Origin: a virus
Taxonomy: Duplodnaviria > Caudoviricetes
IMG/VR virus record: IMGVR_UViG_3300035164_000003
Location: 1 to 29,739 of that record
Reading direction: 5' to 3' (one strand)
Length of the DNA stretch: 29,739 nt
Shown here: in pieces, positions 12,399-28,362 of the stretch
Position numbering within the stretch: the first letter of the stretch is position 1
Layout of the letters: each line of letters begins with the position of its first letter
The notes under the pieces: generated by a model
The model's database searches: none
The model's input: the letters and a program-made list of their open reading frames with translations, nothing else
Told to the model about the DNA's origin: nothing
Program-made: the position numbers and the translations under genes

Positions 12399-13198
12399 TG
12401 TTAGGAACATATACATATAACGAAATATTTCGTAAGACGGTTATTGGTTTCGGTACTTTGTTTAACAATATCGAAATTAGACGTGTGAGTGGATCTAAGA
12501 CAGAGGTTATGAAAGTACCTTTGGCATATGGTCCTAAAGATAAATTCCTAGCACGTTTAGCACAAGCTGGAACTACTGCTGACAGATCAACTCAAATCAG
12601 TTTACCCAGAATATCTTTTGAGATATCTGGATTTTCATATGATTCTACTAGAAAGGTATCACCAACTCAGGTGATAAGACACGTTGATAACAATGATGGT
12701 GGTAAGACTAAAAAGTCTTTTATGCCAGTTCCATATAATGTGGATTTTGAACTTGCTATTCTTTCTAAGAATCAAGATGATGGATTACAAATCTTAGAAC
12801 AAATTCTTCCAGTATTTCAACCAATGTTTAATATAACTATTAACTTGGTCGATGCTATTGGTGAGAAAAAAGATTTCCCAATAACACTTAACTCTGTTAA
12901 TTATGATGATGACTATGAGGGAGATTTTACAACACGTAGAACTTTAATCTACACGTTGTCATTTACTGCTAAGACTTATCTCTACGGTCCTGTCTCTGAC
13001 GTTACCGATAAAATTATCAAGACTGCTATTGTTGATACTGCTATGGCGGTAGATACAACAGCACCTAGAGAGGTTCGTTATCAAGTTCAACCCGATCCAT
13101 TCACTGCTGATGCAGATGATAACTTCGGTTTCAACGAAATATATTCTGAATTTACTGATGGAAAATCAAGAAACCCAACCACAGGACAAGACGAATAA
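12398..13198 (+). CDS. g15: Tail sheath stabilizer/terminator gp15
   Basis: FGTLFNNIEI.R, KVPLAYGPK.KFLARL, LPRISFE, QILEQILP.FQP; synteny. Confidence 0.93.
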   Translation: MLGTYTYNEIFRKTVIGFGTLFNNIEIRRVSGSKTEVMKVPLAYGPKDKFLARLAQAGTTADRSTQISLPRISFEISGFSYDSTRKVSPTQVIRHVDNNDGGKTKKSFMPVPYNVDFELAILSKNQDDGLQILEQILPVFQPMFNITINLVDAIGEKKDFPITLNSVNYDDDYEGDFTTRRTLIYTLSFTAKTYLYGPVSDVTDKIIKTAIVDTAMAVDTTAPREVRYQVQPDPFTADADDNFGFNEIYSEFTDGKSRNPTTGQDE

Positions 13199-13625
13199 GA
13201 TCTATGGTGGCATCGAAGATGCACTAGAGGTTGAGACTTCTCTTGTTAGTGACATTTCTAAGGACAAGAGTTCCGATTTAGCACAACCTGTTGAGTCTAC
13301 TCCTATCCAAAAACAGATCTTGAAAGATTATGAGTATTCTCGTGGTCAGTTTTATTCTTTGATTGAAAAAGGACAAGAGGCAGTAGATGGAATATTAGAT
13401 GTTGCACAACAATCAGATTCACCACGTGCATATGAAGTAGCTGGTAATCTAATTAAGAATGTCGGTGATACTGCTGACAAACTTATGGATCTTCAAAAGA
13501 AATTAGAAGAAGTTCAAGGTGGTGGTAGTGCTAAAAACTTACCAGGTAACGTAACAAACAATACTATGTTTGTTGGTTCTACTGCTGAACTCGCTAAATT
13601 TTTGAAGAAACAAAAGGATAAATAA
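13158..13625 (+). CDS. g16: Terminase small subunit gp16
   Basis: DYEYSR..., A..SDSPRAYEVAG.LIK, NVTNN.MFVGSTAEL. Start placed at ATG 13158 (MENQ) instead of 13110 to reduce overlap with g15. Confidence 0.9.
   Translation: MENQETQPQDKTNKIYGGIEDALEVETSLVSDISKDKSSDLAQPVESTPIQKQILKDYEYSRGQFYSLIEKGQEAVDGILDVAQQSDSPRAYEVAGNLIKNVGDTADKLMDLQKKLEEVQGGGSAKNLPGNVTNNTMFVGSTAELAKFLKKQKDK
13617..13624 (+). promoter_or_regulatory. Late promoter driving the first accessory operon
   Basis: GATAAATA overlapping the g16 stop, 24 nt upstream of the ATG at 13649; AGGA motifs follow. Confidence 0.65.
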
Positions 13626-13648: not shown

Positions 13649-14188
13649 ATGTCAGTTTTAAATGTATTAGATACAACGACAGTGAGTGGTTCAGGAACTG
13701 CATACATAGTGGTCAAATCTGGTGTCGTACGTGCGTACGCTGCATCAGCATCCACAATAAAATTTGACGAAGGTCCTGCGATTACTCTTGCTGCTGGAGA
13801 AGCGGTTTTACTGTCAGTAGGTAAAGCAAAGAACGCTAAGATCGCTGCTGCGACAGACGCTGCTACAATGGTAATCACTGCTGAAGGATTCTCAGGTGGT
13901 GGTAGACATACTTTTAGTGTTGGAGATTATATAGAAACAGTTGATGGTGGTGACACAGATGGATTTACATCTGACTTTGAATCAGCAGCATCAGGTGGTA
14001 AGAAGGTAACAGCAATCACTGCTTCTACTATTACAACAGATTATGATTCATCTGCTGCAAGTGGAGACTATGCTCTCAGTGCTGCTGATGCAACTGCTGG
14101 AAACATTCCATTAGTAAAACGTGCAGTTAAATGTGTTGCTGGTAGTAACGCAGTTATATTAGAACAAGTTCAAATTGTAGGTGGCTAA
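13649..14188 (+). CDS. Hypothetical protein, probably virion structural (beta-rich, A/G/S/T-rich)
   Basis: 179-aa ORF with RBS and late promoter; composition resembles the structural genes of the window. Confidence 0.7.
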   Translation: MSVLNVLDTTTVSGSGTAYIVVKSGVVRAYAASASTIKFDEGPAITLAAGEAVLLSVGKAKNAKIAAATDAATMVITAEGFSGGGRHTFSVGDYIETVDGGDTDGFTSDFESAASGGKKVTAITASTITTDYDSSAASGDYALSAADATAGNIPLVKRAVKCVAGSNAVILEQVQIVGG

Positions 14189-14679
14189 TGTCAACTCTAT
14201 CTTTTAAACAATTCATTGCTGAAGGTGGTTTATCTCGTGCTGTTAGAAACTCTATGCAGCGTAATACTGCACAGTTAACAGCAAACAGAGGTAACGTATC
14301 TAGTGCTGAAAACAAAGCAAAGAATAAAGAACTAGGTAAAAAAGTTCGTAGTTTAGGATATGGTTACAAAAAGGTAGAAGGAAAATATGCAGAGAAAGAC
14401 GAGAAGACAGGGGAAACAAAGACTGTAAGAGAACCATCTATTGTAGTTAATGCACCCAAGAAAAAGTTCAGAACTTTTAAGAAACAGATGAAGCGTCTTG
14501 GTAAGGAATACAATCAGGATTCCATAATTACCAAAAAAGGTAAAAAAGATGCTATACTAAATCCAACTGCTCGTAGAGCAGGAACTAAGGGTATGAAGTT
14601 AGGTCAAGTAAAACCTAATCGTCCCAACCCTTATGGGGAAACAAAAGTTAAAAACAAATCTTACTCATATGGAAACTGA
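14188..14679 (+). CDS. Putative SAM lyase (T3 SAMase-like) with an N-terminal capsid-targeting-like sequence; probable internal virion protein
   Basis: N-terminus MSTLSFKQFIAE resembles the T4 CTS MKTYQEFIAE. Ordered motifs LTANRG..N...N..L....G.Y.E...EPSIVV...L...YNQDSII follow the SAM lyase pattern. Very Lys-rich. Confidence 0.6.
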   Translation: MSTLSFKQFIAEGGLSRAVRNSMQRNTAQLTANRGNVSSAENKAKNKELGKKVRSLGYGYKKVEGKYAEKDEKTGETKTVREPSIVVNAPKKKFRTFKKQMKRLGKEYNQDSIITKKGKKDAILNPTARRAGTKGMKLGQVKPNRPNPYGETKVKNKSYSYGN

Positions 14680-16669: not shown

Positions 16670-16913
16670 ATATGAAAAGAGAGCACTCGATCCTTGTTGG
16701 CAACACAAACAAAAATGTGTCGCAATGTTCACCCTCGATTCACACAACACTAGCTACCTATATCGAAGAGAAGATAACACATATTACTGGCAGCATTGTA
16801 GAAAGGAAGCGGAAGACGACCTCCTCATAGATGCCGATAATATACAATTAGATTTGTTTGGAGACCCAATCTTATCAAAATCTTTTATAATGAAAGAGAT
16901 CTTTTCAGTATAA
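16662..16913 (+). CDS. Hypothetical protein (83 aa)
   Basis: GTG at 16662 with GGAG at 16653-16656 is the likelier start; contains QLDLFG. Confidence 0.65.
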   Translation: MTEYEKRALDPCWQHKQKCVAMFTLDSHNTSYLYRREDNTYYWQHCRKEAEDDLLIDADNIQLDLFGDPILSKSFIMKEIFSV

Positions 16914-16921: not shown

Positions 16922-17422
16922 ATGAAACAATTCAATACTTTCGTCTTAGATACTACAATCTATATCTTAGACTTTCTTTACAGAGGTAGAGACTTTCAAA
17001 GGTTTTGGGTTCTAGAAGTTATTGCTAGAGCACCATACTTTTCATTTATCAGTGTGTTACATTTTCGTGAATCTCTTGGTCTACGAGGTGAAGAACACAT
17101 ATATCTAATGAAGGAACACTTTTATCAAGCACTCAATGAAACAGAACACTTGGAAGAGATGGAACTTAGAGAGGGGAATAAATATTGGATCGATAGATTC
17201 TTCGCTAAACACTTGGTTCTTCTTTACTATTGGATTATGGTTGCTTATTATTTCATTAGTCCCTTAGATGCGTACGACATCAATATGAAAATTGAGAAAC
17301 ACGCATATGAAACTTACACGAAATACCTTGCATATCATCCAGAAGATACAAAGATTGCTGAGATAGCAGAGGATGAATTAAAACACGCTAAAGAATTACA
17401 TCACGCAATGTCTCTGATCTAA
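16922..17422 (+). CDS. ptox: Plastoquinol terminal oxidase (PTOX, alternative-oxidase di-iron family); auxiliary metabolic gene
   Basis: RFWVLEVIARAPYFSF.SVLH, NETEHL (ExxH), IEKHAYETY and EDELKH (ExxH): all di-iron ligand motifs present. Confidence 0.95.
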   Translation: MKQFNTFVLDTTIYILDFLYRGRDFQRFWVLEVIARAPYFSFISVLHFRESLGLRGEEHIYLMKEHFYQALNETEHLEEMELREGNKYWIDRFFAKHLVLLYYWIMVAYYFISPLDAYDINMKIEKHAYETYTKYLAYHPEDTKIAEIAEDELKHAKELHHAMSLI

Positions 17423-25099: not shown

Positions 25100-25294
25100 A
25101 TGCCTAGCGTAGCCGCTACAGAAATCATAAATAAATTGTTCTCTGGAAACAAAGATCTAGGGAATGAGGTCAATGATGCAATGATGGCACTCTCTGCTGA
25201 TAAACTTGACGCAGAGAAAAAGACAATCGCTAAAGATTGGTTAAAAGATCCCACACAGGAAACACCAGATGAAACTGATAACGGAGCAGATTGA
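25100..25294 (+). CDS. Small protein at the T4 g67/g68 (prohead core) position
   Basis: 64-aa helical, acidic-tailed ORF with GAGG RBS between g20 and g21; function inferred from synteny only. Confidence 0.65.
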   Translation: MPSVAATEIINKLFSGNKDLGNEVNDAMMALSADKLDAEKKTIAKDWLKDPTQETPDETDNGAD

Positions 25295-25919
25295 TGACAT
25301 TGAGATCCTCAGTGAGGAGAAAAATGGCAAAAAACATCTGTACATAGAAGGAACTTTTCTGCAAGGAAACATAAAGAACCGCAATGGTCGTATGTATCCA
25401 ATGGAAACACTTGCACGTGAAGTCGATAAATATTCCAACACTTACATCAAGTCTGGAAGAGCAATGGGAGAACTCGGACACCCCGATGGACCTATTGTTA
25501 ATTTAGATAGAGTTTCACATTTAATTACTTCTCTTGTTCAAGAAGGAAGTAACTTTAAAGGTAAAGCAAAAATCCTAGATACCCCAATGGGACAGATTGC
25601 TAAGTCACTTTTAGATGAAGGTGTACGTTTAGGTGTGTCATCACGAGGGGTAGGCTCACTAAAATTGAACCGTGAAGGTGTAAATGTTGTGGCAGATGAC
25701 TTTATGCTCGCTACTGCTGCTGATATAGTGGCAGATCCCAGTGCACCAGAGGCTTTCGTAAATGGAATTATGGAAGGAAAAGAGTGGGTTTGGACAAATT
25801 CAGCGTTAAAAGAATCAGATCTCCGCAAGGTTGAGAGGGATTTAGACAACGCTAGTTCAAAAAGAGAGCTTGTTGAAAGGCAAGTTACCGCATTTGAAAC
25901 CTTTTTAAAAGGTTTATAA
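25269..25919 (+). CDS. g21: Prohead protease gp21
   Basis: LYIEG.FLQ..IKNRNGR.YP, GELGHP, LGVSSRGVGS, DIVADPSAP.AFV.GIME. Confidence 0.96.
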   Translation: MKLITEQIDDIEILSEEKNGKKHLYIEGTFLQGNIKNRNGRMYPMETLAREVDKYSNTYIKSGRAMGELGHPDGPIVNLDRVSHLITSLVQEGSNFKGKAKILDTPMGQIAKSLLDEGVRLGVSSRGVGSLKLNREGVNVVADDFMLATAADIVADPSAPEAFVNGIMEGKEWVWTNSALKESDLRKVERDLDNASSKRELVERQVTAFETFLKGL

Positions 25920-25973: not shown

Positions 25974-26957
25974 ATGTCAGATGAGAAAGTAACAGCATCT
26001 ACAGAACAAGTAACTGAAGCCAAGTTTGATGGTGCTGTTGCTGATGGTTCAACATTAGGTGCAGTAGAAGTTCTAGGAGGACCAACTCCAATGAACTCAA
26101 AACCCGATGATGATTCAAATAAATTGAAGACTCCATCACAAACTACAGCAACACCACCAAAGACAAAACCATCTGCTGCTTCAGGCAAGATTGAGTCAGT
26201 GGAAGCTGAGAATGCTGAAGGTGAGAACCTAATTGAAATTGACGTTACAGCAGACGTGGACGCACTAACTAACGGTGAAGACCTTAGTGAAGAGTTCAAA
26301 GAAAAAGCTGCAACTATTTTCGAGGCAGCAGTCGTCTCTAGGTTAAACGAGGAACTTGACCGTATCCATAAGGAATACTCAGAGGGAGTCGTTGACGAAG
26401 TAGAGAAGGTCAAAACAGAATTGGCAGAACAGGTAGACGAGTATCTTACCTATGCCGTACAGTCTTGGATCGACGATAACAAACTTGCAGTAGAAAGTGG
26501 TCTCAAATCAGAGATTGCTGAGTCTGTTGTCGATGGTCTTAAAAAAGTTTTCGTCGAGAACCACATTGAGGTTCCCGAAGAAAAAGCAGATATCATCTCC
26601 GAGATGGCATCTGAGCTTGATACAATGGAAACAAAACTCAACGATCAACTTGAAAGAAACGTTGCTCTTACTAAAGAAGTAGCGGGATTTGTTAAAGATG
26701 GGATTGTGAAGGAGATCTCCGAAGGACTTGCTAGTACTGAAAAAGAAAAACTAGCATCACTTGCCGAAGGAGTTGAGTTTGAAGATGAAGAGTCATTCCG
26801 CAAGAAGGTTGAGTCTTTGAAGGAGTCTTACTTCTCAAAGAAACCAGCACCAGCTAACGCTGAGACTATTGCTGAAGACGTTCAACCAGTTGTGGACACA
26901 GAGATGACGGACTCTATGTCACGTTACGTAGACGCACTCCGTCGCTGGACAAAGTGA
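25974..26957 (+). CDS. g22: Prohead core scaffold protein gp22
   Basis: LSEEFKEKAATIFEAAV, VDEYL.Y....W...N..A, acidic coiled coil, MSRYV.AL at the C-terminus; synteny. Confidence 0.93.
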   Translation: MSDEKVTASTEQVTEAKFDGAVADGSTLGAVEVLGGPTPMNSKPDDDSNKLKTPSQTTATPPKTKPSAASGKIESVEAENAEGENLIEIDVTADVDALTNGEDLSEEFKEKAATIFEAAVVSRLNEELDRIHKEYSEGVVDEVEKVKTELAEQVDEYLTYAVQSWIDDNKLAVESGLKSEIAESVVDGLKKVFVENHIEVPEEKADIISEMASELDTMETKLNDQLERNVALTKEVAGFVKDGIVKEISEGLASTEKEKLASLAEGVEFEDEESFRKKVESLKESYFSKKPAPANAETIAEDVQPVVDTEMTDSMSRYVDALRRWTK

Positions 26958-26991: not shown

Positions 26992-28362
26992 ATGTTTAAC
27001 TCAGAACAGTTACAGGAGAAGTGGAACCCAATTCTTAAGTGTGATGGTATCGAAGATATCAAAGATAACTACAAGAAGGCAGTTACAGCCGTTCTCCTTG
27101 AAAACCAAGAGAAATTCCTTAACGAAGAGAGAGGAGTTTTAACAGAGGCAGCACCAACAGTAAGCACAGCATCTACATCAGGTGGAGTTGCTGGTTTCAG
27201 TGCTAACTCTACAGCAACAGGTCCTTCTGCTGGTTTCGACCCAGTATTGATCTCGTTGATCAGACGTTCAATGCCAAAGCTTATTGCATATGACATTGCT
27301 GGCGTTCAACCTATGACAGGTCCTACAGGACTTATCTTTGCTATGAGATCCAGATACGGTACAAACCGTACTGCTGGTACAGAAGCATTCTTCAACGAAG
27401 CAGATTCACAGTTCTCTGGAACTGACGCAGCACAAACAAGTGGATTCGGTTCACAAGGTAGTGCACAAGCAGGAAGTAACCCAGGTATTCTTAACGACTC
27501 TGGTACCTATACAAATGGTACAGCGATGAGAACAGACGAGGCAGAGACACTCGGAACTGGATCTAACGCTTTCGCTGAAATGAACTTCAGTATTGAGAAA
27601 GTTACTGTGACTGCGAAGTCCAGAGCACTCAAAGCTGAGTACAGTTTAGAACTAGCACAAGACTTGAAAGCCGTTCACGGTCTTGACGCTGAGTCAGAAC
27701 TAGCAAACATCCTCTCAACAGAGGTTCTTGCAGAAATCAACCGTGAGGTTGTTCGTACTGTTTACAAGGTTGCAAGACCTGGTGCTCAGAACAATACTGC
27801 ATCTGCTGGTATCTTCGACTTAGACGTTGACTCAAACGGTAGATGGTCTGTTGAGAAGTTCAAAGGTCTGTTATTCCAGATCGAAAGAGATATGAACGCC
27901 ATCGGGCACGAGACACGTCGTGGTAAGGGGAACATTCTAATATGTTCTGCTGACGTTGCGTCTGCTCTATCAATGGCTGGTGTACTTGACTACACTCCTG
28001 CTCTTGCTGGAAACTCAAACTTACTTCCTGATGACAATAGTTCTACACTTGCTGGAACATTAAACGGAAGAATCAAAGTTTATGTTGACCCATATTCTGC
28101 AAACGTAAGTGACAGACACTTCTACGTTGCTGGATACAAAGGTAGTTCTGCATATGATGCAGGATTATTCTACTGCCCATACGTTCCTCTACAAATGGTT
28201 AGAGCCGTTGGTCAGGACACCTTCCAACCAAAAATTGGATTTAAGACAAGATACGGTCTTGTTTCAAACCCATTTGCTGAAGGTACTGATCAAGGTGGTG
28301 GAGACCTTGACCCTAACAAGAACAGATACTACAGAAGAGTTCTTGTTGACAACTTAATGTAA
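26992..28362 (+). CDS. g23: Major capsid protein gp23
   Basis: LLENQE, DPVLISLIRRSMP.LIAYDI.GVQPMTGPTGLIFAMR, AKSRALKAEYS.ELAQDLKA.HGLDAE, FQPKIGFKTRYG. Confidence 0.98.
   Translation: MFNSEQLQEKWNPILKCDGIEDIKDNYKKAVTAVLLENQEKFLNEERGVLTEAAPTVSTASTSGGVAGFSANSTATGPSAGFDPVLISLIRRSMPKLIAYDIAGVQPMTGPTGLIFAMRSRYGTNRTAGTEAFFNEADSQFSGTDAAQTSGFGSQGSAQAGSNPGILNDSGTYTNGTAMRTDEAETLGTGSNAFAEMNFSIEKVTVTAKSRALKAEYSLELAQDLKAVHGLDAESELANILSTEVLAEINREVVRTVYKVARPGAQNNTASAGIFDLDVDSNGRWSVEKFKGLLFQIERDMNAIGHETRRGKGNILICSADVASALSMAGVLDYTPALAGNSNLLPDDNSSTLAGTLNGRIKVYVDPYSANVSDRHFYVAGYKGSSAYDAGLFYCPYVPLQMVRAVGQDTFQPKIGFKTRYGLVSNPFAEGTDQGGGDLDPNKNRYYRRVLVDNLM

Follow-up and report, generated by a model that had tools for sequence, protein, structure and literature searches.

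The SAM lyase of phage T3 (gp0.3; PDB 7OCK, 8BB1) is an early enzyme that reaches about 10,000 copies per cell. According to the available part of bioRxiv 10.1101/2023.02.27.530186, it defeats type I restriction and BREX, and it binds and inhibits the host MetK through its N-terminal tail and the beta4-beta5 loop. For the lyase Svi3-3 (PDB 6ZM9), a trimer of a shorter fold whose native start is not known, the accessible sections of PMC7877911 report that neither tail is needed and that N-terminal trimming only about doubled turnover; SAM lyases are described there as toxic upon expression. SAM-AMP lyases (AcrIIIB4 candidate) have the same fold and catalytic Glu, and one phage member of the fold family cleaves SAM-AMP, not SAM (PMC12255297, available excerpt).

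The internal proteins of phage T4 represent the second point of comparison. Ip1-3 are injected inhibitors of GmrSD (PMC12373910, in the part available), and a T4 head holds approximately 1,000 internal proteins in all (excerpts of PMC3012670 and PMC5694885). In the T4 capsid-targeting sequence (CTS), positions 4 and 7 serve targeting and positions 8 and 10 serve processing, with gp21 cutting after L/I-X-E (PMC9026906, available text). The closest precedent for a combination of the two systems is ORF6 of cyanophage S-CREM2, annotated as 'SAM hydrolase (virion protein)', which is one of 52 proteins identified in purified virions, its identification resting on 19 unique peptides that cover 26.3% of the sequence (PMC10665884, Table 3). 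The same work, in its available text, proposed in 2023 that entry of ORF6 into the host may shield phage DNA from restriction.

The window analyzed here, a stretch of 29,739 nucleotides, spans a linear virus record (29.7 kb, approximately 17% complete), and its gene content is that of the head-tail module of a T4-like myovirus. The module runs from neck genes through the small terminase (13110-13625), an inserted stretch that carries a plastoquinol oxidase, the large terminase, sheath, tube, portal, prohead protease and scaffold to the major capsid protein. An ORF of the SAM lyase family, at 14188..14679 on the plus strand, is encoded alongside both a gp21-like prohead protease (Peptidase_S77; 25269..25919, plus strand), which is the predicted enzyme for processing of its leader, and a gp22-type core/scaffold protein (T4_CASP profile match, 25974-26957). 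The virus is likely a marine T4-like phage of a cyanobacterial host. The gene directly upstream of the lyase ORF is 76% and 70% identical to its counterparts in P-TIM40 and P-RSM6, two phages that were isolated with Prochlorococcus NATL2A as host, and P-TIM40 shares the order gp15, gp16, upstream-gene counterpart, lyase-bearing gene, ptoX, endonuclease and gp17; because of this identity and this shared gene order, Prochlorococcus is the likely host.

The lyase ORF encodes a basic protein of 163 aa with an N-terminal leader; the protein begins MSTLSFKQFIAE and continues with GG, and a longer N-terminal stretch reads MSTLSFKQFIAEGG. Its Lys-rich body and its translational coupling, both pointed out in the preliminary description, were confirmed: the protein contains 29 K and 11 R (pI 10.4), its K+R content of 25% is the top value among the 31 listed ORFs of the window, and the stop codon of the ORF at 13649-14188 overlaps the lyase ATG at 14188 in a TAATG. 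Membership in the SAM lyase family, also proposed earlier, was upheld by a Pfam S-AdoMet_lyase (PF23780) match at 14275..14619 on the plus strand, above the cut-off of 28 (51.2 bits, E 2.5e-15). A search of solved structures with the single sequence gave nothing relevant (3 matches, E 0.6 or worse). A family profile of 57 members, selected as short and with an N-terminal leader, reached the T3 SAMase 7OCK with E 7e-5 and Svi3-3 6ZM9 with E 0.04. The predicted model (pLDDT 90.4) has the ferredoxin-like SAMase fold, and among 48,161 chains only 7ock_L, the T3 SAMase, matched it at a Z of at least 8. This match scored Z 14.5, with 135 residues (model 20-163) superposed at an rmsd of 2.9 A and 13% of the structurally aligned positions identical; Svi3-3 came second with Z 7.5.

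The active-site residues of Svi3-3, as given in the accessible part of PMC7877911, map one to one in the profile alignment. Gly56 and Tyr58 correspond to G65-x-Y67 (14380..14388, plus strand), the essential Glu69 and Ser71 to E82-x-S84 (14431..14439, plus strand), and Gln104-Glu105-Ser106 to Q110-D111-S112 (14515..14523, plus strand), the single substitution being D111, an Asp as in T3, for the Svi3-3 Glu. Conservation was assessed in 164 homologues (19 plus 145 from the best 150 of 656, excluding the protein's own cluster and two near-identical fragments), and the SAM-binding residues appeared as the most conserved positions of the family: G in 159/163, an aromatic residue in 157/163, E in 161/164, S in 149/164, Q in 161/161 and D or E in 157/161. 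The ORF product is thus predicted, from profile and model, to be a T3-type SAM lyase that shares with gp0.3 the fold, the G-x-Y, catalytic E and Q-D motifs and, presumably, a SAM-draining role in counter-defense, and that would differ from the SAM-AMP lyases in its substrate. In contrast to gp0.3, it starts with a leader of the capsid-targeting type, has one more helix at the N-terminus, is much more strongly basic and sits in a probably late structural unit. The alignment with the T3 enzyme begins at T3 residue 7, so that the MetK-binding tail (residues 1-6) has no aligned counterpart in the model, and a predicted complex between the mature form and two Prochlorococcus MetK chains scored 0.00, which counts neither for nor against MetK binding.

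For the N-terminus, a T4-type targeting leader followed by a protease site had been proposed, and this proposal was supported by the match to the CTS residues, by the ranking of the T4 ip genes and by retention of the site in homologues. Codons 14188-14226 specify M-S-T-L-S-F-K-Q-F-I-A-E-G. In the capsid-targeting-like leader M1-E12 (14188..14223, plus strand), F6 and F9 take the roles of CTS positions 4 and 7, and I10 and E12 those of positions 8 and 10, all shifted two residues away from the N-terminus relative to T4. The predicted cut falls between 14223 and 14224, after I10-A11-E12 (E12 being encoded by 14221-14223), and would expose a predicted new N-terminal helix, G13-Q24 (14224..14259, plus strand), with the near-invariant R17 and with no T3 SAMase alignment before residue 20. 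A 9-column tag matrix was trained on 60 homologue N-termini, with T4 outside the training set: among 520 candidate starts on both strands of the window the lyase start ranked first with 20.1, and the runner-up scored 8.2. When applied to 22 T4 genes, the matrix placed ipII (21.9), ipIII (21.9) and ipI (17.5) first and the next gene at 5.0; the T4 targeting sequence quoted earlier, MKTYQEFIAE, is right for the N-termini of ipII and ipIII. The leader also holds none of the 6 non-synonymous codon changes (against 43 synonymous ones) found in 7 near-identical copies of the gene.

The lyase ORF shares with T4 IPI, IPII and IPIII an aromatic-x-x-F-I-x-E leader with an I-x-E cut site, a small basic product and a gp21-like protease in the genome. 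It differs in having two more residues before the motif and in its cargo, which is predicted to be a cofactor-attacking enzyme, whereas the T4 proteins are binding inhibitors of GmrSD nucleases. The gp23 cleavage site described earlier as L-T-E followed by A was found at residues 50-53 (L-T-E at residues 50-52; 27139..27147, plus strand), but as one of three candidate propeptide cut sites, the rivals being L-L-E at 35 and L-N-E at 43. The plastoquinol oxidase gene (16922-17422) is served by a separate, perfect late box at 16909, and its N-terminus scores 8.2 with the tag matrix, yet no I/L-x-E site follows.

Homologues of the lyase, mostly less than 50% identical to one another, retain the putative cleavage site widely. 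A hydrophobic-x-E lies 5-8 residues before R17 in 145 of 155 homologues (a random-anchor control gave a mean of 9.9 and a maximum of 18), and the R17 column is R in 151 of 156. In the raw sequences, an E stands exactly five residues before R17 in 122/155, with L (72) or I (42) two residues earlier in 114 of these 122; in 36 of the 122, more than 25 residues precede the domain, and leader length across homologues ranges from about 5 to more than 600 residues. A tag scoring at least 8, either N-terminal or no more than 30 residues away from the domain, was counted in 83/155, a figure that is partly circular because the matrix was trained on the lyase family itself. Homologues lacking the leader, which had been named earlier as evidence against the proposal, thus do exist, with 72/155 lacking a scoring tag and 10/155 lacking the site. 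In a tree of 153 domains, five of nine site-less rows cluster with one other sequence (support 0.85), and the lineage that has lost the E retains the following helix; the E is therefore dispensable for the fold, which suggests, at the level of sequence comparison, that it serves processing and not folding. Within the domain, I/L-x-E is rarer than expected (observed/expected 0.33, compared with 1.53 upstream), but this depletion was given little weight because other residue pairs were equally low and the rows are related.

The taxonomic distribution of these proteins is mostly among cyanophages. A tblastn search recovered 28 phage records, and a search from a more distant member recovered 47, adding phages of Campylobacter, Alishewanella, Paraglaciecola and Microcystis as well as Lak phages. 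Two of these distant homologues were translated, and both have the cleavage site; they are unannotated members with leader and site in Campylobacter phage CP220 (CPT_0131; L029 2423-3052), which encodes 11 radical SAM proteins, and in Paraglaciecola phage GD1 (gp48; L030 2001-2579). Two long homologues, S-SZBM1_194 (707 aa) and PTIM40_113 (769 aa), have the tag-like motif within the chain, immediately in front of a C-terminal lyase domain; both are encoded in the same slot (L006 1384-3507 and L027 1695-4004) and are rich in Lys, with several joints of protease type ahead of the lyase. Six homologues of 350-550 aa (P0028, P0046, P0068, P0092, P0121, P0145) contain two matched lyase stretches in tandem, and in them too a hydrophobic-x-E precedes the aligned lyase stretch. 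The site-less homologues P0057, P0113, P0116, P0136, P0152, P0080, P0088 and P0123 form two or three clusters, and one site-less homologue is annotated from an Actinomycetia genome bin; scans recovered no loci for the site-less homologues, and no viral context was found for them.

The lyase is likely made late, as judged from its promoter context and neighbors. A late-promoter-like box, GATAAATA, occupies 13617..13624 on the plus strand, where it overlaps the last part of the small terminase gene; the upstream gene follows about 30 nt and the lyase ORF 570 nt downstream. The box, at which the preliminary description placed a late promoter, departs from the T4 consensus TATAAATA at one position and heads the upstream gene. 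Matches with a single mismatch are no more frequent in the window than chance predicts (52 observed for 54.8 expected), but 7 of the 11 ATAAATA sites on the plus strand, this one among them, stand 10-70 nt in front of an ORF start, such zones making up 6.4% of the window (p = 1e-6), and because of this concentration the box is probably real. No sigma-70-like site matching at least 10 of 12 positions was found on the plus strand upstream of the lyase (4 sites against 6.4 expected). The coupled upstream gene (13649..14188, plus strand), of the DUF7243 / T4-GC403 family, matches P-RSM4 104835-105368, labelled T4-GC403, and virions of S-SM1 gave 60 peptide counts for that phage's member of the family (PMC3037559, supplementary table 8). 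The family is carried by 258 cyanophage records and is an abundant virion protein in S-SM1. A weak terminator-like hairpin inside the upstream gene (14132..14152, plus strand), 36 nt before the lyase start, could reduce lyase output relative to this virion protein.

Among seven cultured homologues, those of S-CREM2 and P-TIM68 have ATAAATA 28 and 10 nt upstream, respectively, though they lie among replication or metabolic genes outside the structural module. In S-SZBM1 and P-TIM40 the box precedes the upstream gene, in GD1 it occurs only at 1,951 nt, and in P-SSM2 (PSSM2_114) and CP220 no late box was seen in the examined flank. The late expression proposed earlier is thus indirectly favored by the box, the virion-protein neighbor and the homologues' own boxes in two other gene contexts, but it is not backed by a box in every homologue. 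As T4 ipI, ipII and ipIII themselves have no TATAAATA within 120 nt upstream, a point of difference from the present unit, late timing was not required for a protein to count as tagged cargo. The available text of PMC7238727 gives no gene-level expression class for the lyase family, and that of PMC9697503 does not mention ip genes. Contigs from RNA libraries (4 runs in 3 studies) cover parts of the lyase gene and in 3 runs bridge the 14188 junction, and contigs of this kind are uninformative about timing and strand and do not demonstrate a single transcript.

Evidence on virion presence comes from homologues and is divided. S-CREM2 ORF6 is 38% identical to the lyase ORF over 160 aa and likewise has a tag-like start and a site before the domain (L-E-E followed by SS); it differs in its length of 414 aa, its long C-terminal part and its location among replication and repair genes. 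Its detection in virions agrees with the earlier proposal of packaging, with two reservations: the peptides, which the supplement does not list, may stem from the 240-residue part that follows the lyase domain, and CsCl-purified phage can carry contaminants. Against packaging, S-SZBM1_194 is missing from the 30-protein virion table of its phage (PMC9146016, Table 1), an absence that is weak but real because the table is shallow (the tail tube is represented by one peptide). The three phages of the PMC3037559 virion table (S-SM1, S-PM2 and Syn9) have no member of T4-GC110 (5 members), and the CP220 homologue is not named in the available part of PMC2853527, whose virion work was gel-band based.

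The association of the tag with virion proteins was also tested genome-wide. A strict pattern matched 3 of 219 S-CREM2 genes (ORF6, kinase ORF14 and cytidylyltransferase ORF154), all three in the virion list (p = 0.013), and a matrix score of at least 10, one of three thresholds tried, selected 5, of which 4 are in the 52-protein list (p = 0.012), ORF6 itself being a member of the training family. In S-SZBM1, 3 of 218 genes score high and one of the three was detected among 30 virion proteins (p = 0.36). When the two phages were pooled, 5/8 tagged and 77/429 other genes had products in virions (p = 0.007, CMH 0.009, with the threshold picked from three).

Taken together, these comparisons make it fairly probable that the ORF encodes a virion-delivered SAM lyase, whose timing, packaging, cleavage, activity, ejection and target we infer. 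The lyase would be made late, and its T4-type leader would draw it into the prohead or bind it to the scaffold core, where the phage's own gp21-like protease would cut after E12 and leave a mature enzyme of 151 residues. This basic 16.9-kDa protein would be kept among the DNA in the head and ejected with it; in the new host it would break SAM down to MTA and homoserine lactone, draining the SAM pool before any phage gene is expressed and slowing SAM-dependent defenses such as type I restriction or BREX. Such a dose is plausible in a small host, since 20-300 copies would clear a picocyanobacterial SAM pool in 1-190 s (assuming 0.1-0.3 fL, 50-200 uM SAM and the Svi3-3 rate of 9.5 per second, with resynthesis ignored). 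In S-CREM2 a Dam methylase is encoded two genes from ORF6, and carriers in general encode SAM-using enzymes, with which an active lyase made late would compete; hence a lyase made at that stage must be kept apart from them, be present in small amounts or be held inactive.

Several other readings of the same locus were weighed. The lyase could be packaged, cut and delivered as above and yet serve to reshape host SAM and methionine metabolism, or attack a SAM-derived molecule such as SAM-AMP. The SAM-AMP lyases with the same fold and Glu lend this some substance (PMC12255297, in part), as does the finding that the methionine genes of E. coli are de-repressed when SAM is lost (bioRxiv 10.1101/2023.02.27.530186, available part). 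It is nevertheless unlikely, as the closest solved structure over 135 residues is the T3 enzyme with its tested role against type I restriction and BREX (same available part), the tagged internal proteins of T4 are anti-restriction factors (PMC12373910, excerpt), and delivery in the virion suits a need in the first minutes. A weak or vestigial leader on a mainly cytoplasmic late lyase, present in little amount in the head and acting for instance to limit host methylation of progeny DNA, would account for the S-SZBM1 virions and for the homologues without a scoring tag, and would fit the disparity between the roughly 10,000 SAMase molecules per cell that T3 needs and the roughly 1,000 internal proteins of a T4 head (values from partly accessible sources). 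We regard this as quite unlikely in view of a site kept in 145 of 155 mostly dissimilar homologues, the virion protein of S-CREM2 and a dose estimate by which a few hundred copies or fewer would suffice for the assumed pool.

With respect to the state of the enzyme in the producing cell, the preliminary description suggested that the leader may keep it inactive until the protease removes it. Given the toxicity of SAM lyases and the SAM-using enzymes of the carriers, some control seems needed, and in the model residues 6-24 form one helix, so that the cut would free a helix start with the near-invariant Arg. This suggestion gained no support here: Svi3-3 is active without either tail and gains only about twofold from trimming (PMC7877911, available sections), the catalytic core aligns to the T3 SAMase from residue 20 onward, leaders of such different lengths precede the domain, and sequestration in the prohead would give control without inhibition, which leaves auto-inhibition rather improbable. 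That the protein is a basic core filler that condenses head DNA, its lyase fold being a relic, is very improbable; the pI, the K+R content and the many homologues that are long Lys-rich chains with several protease-type joints would suit such a role, but a filler would not need the SAM-binding residues that the family conserves above all others. Delivery of an active SAM lyase in the virion remains the preferred reading.

The pre-emptive, virion-delivered SAMase envisaged in the preliminary description is thus tenable, but it is not new. SAM lyases and the capsid tag are each known, and virion presence and the idea of an anti-restriction role have been published for one homologue, which limits the value of the present proposal; its new part, on sequence grounds, is the putative signal for loading and maturation and the extent to which the lyase family shares it. 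The text of PMC10665884 contains 0 mentions of targeting, cleavage or internal proteins. No publication linking a SAM lyase to a capsid-targeting sequence was found in a search of mostly open-access literature, and the available parts of PMC13326640, PMC12801897, PMC9697503 and PMC2853527 hold nothing bearing on a tagged SAM lyase. The SAM lyases known so far come into play after early gene expression, and the T4 internal proteins known so far inhibit single nucleases by binding; if the proposal is true, one injected enzyme could disable several SAM-dependent defenses at DNA entry. A broader conjecture, which we hold to be improbable as a whole, is that T4-like phages far beyond E. coli generally load enzymes through a capsid tag and head protease, that the whole lyase subfamily, whose members range from cyanophages to phages of Campylobacter and Lak phages, occurs solely as virion cargo matured by the protease, and that the cut at E12 frees a helix and switches the enzyme on before phage genes are read.

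The tag may also offer a simple rule for predicting virion cargo from sequence and a mechanism for the unexplained non-structural proteins of cyanophage virions, as the S-CREM2 kinase, cytidylyltransferase and SAM hydrolase all start with it. Most of the 'non-structural' virion proteins of S-CREM2 begin with a tag-like leader (kinase ORF14, cytidylyltransferase ORF154, ORF13, 15 and 136), and ORF12 has the tag motif about 20 residues in; PMC10665884 is silent on these leaders. Tag-like starts were likewise observed in several neighbors of lyase-bearing genes, namely SSZBM1_191, 192, PTIM40_114 and PSSM2_115.
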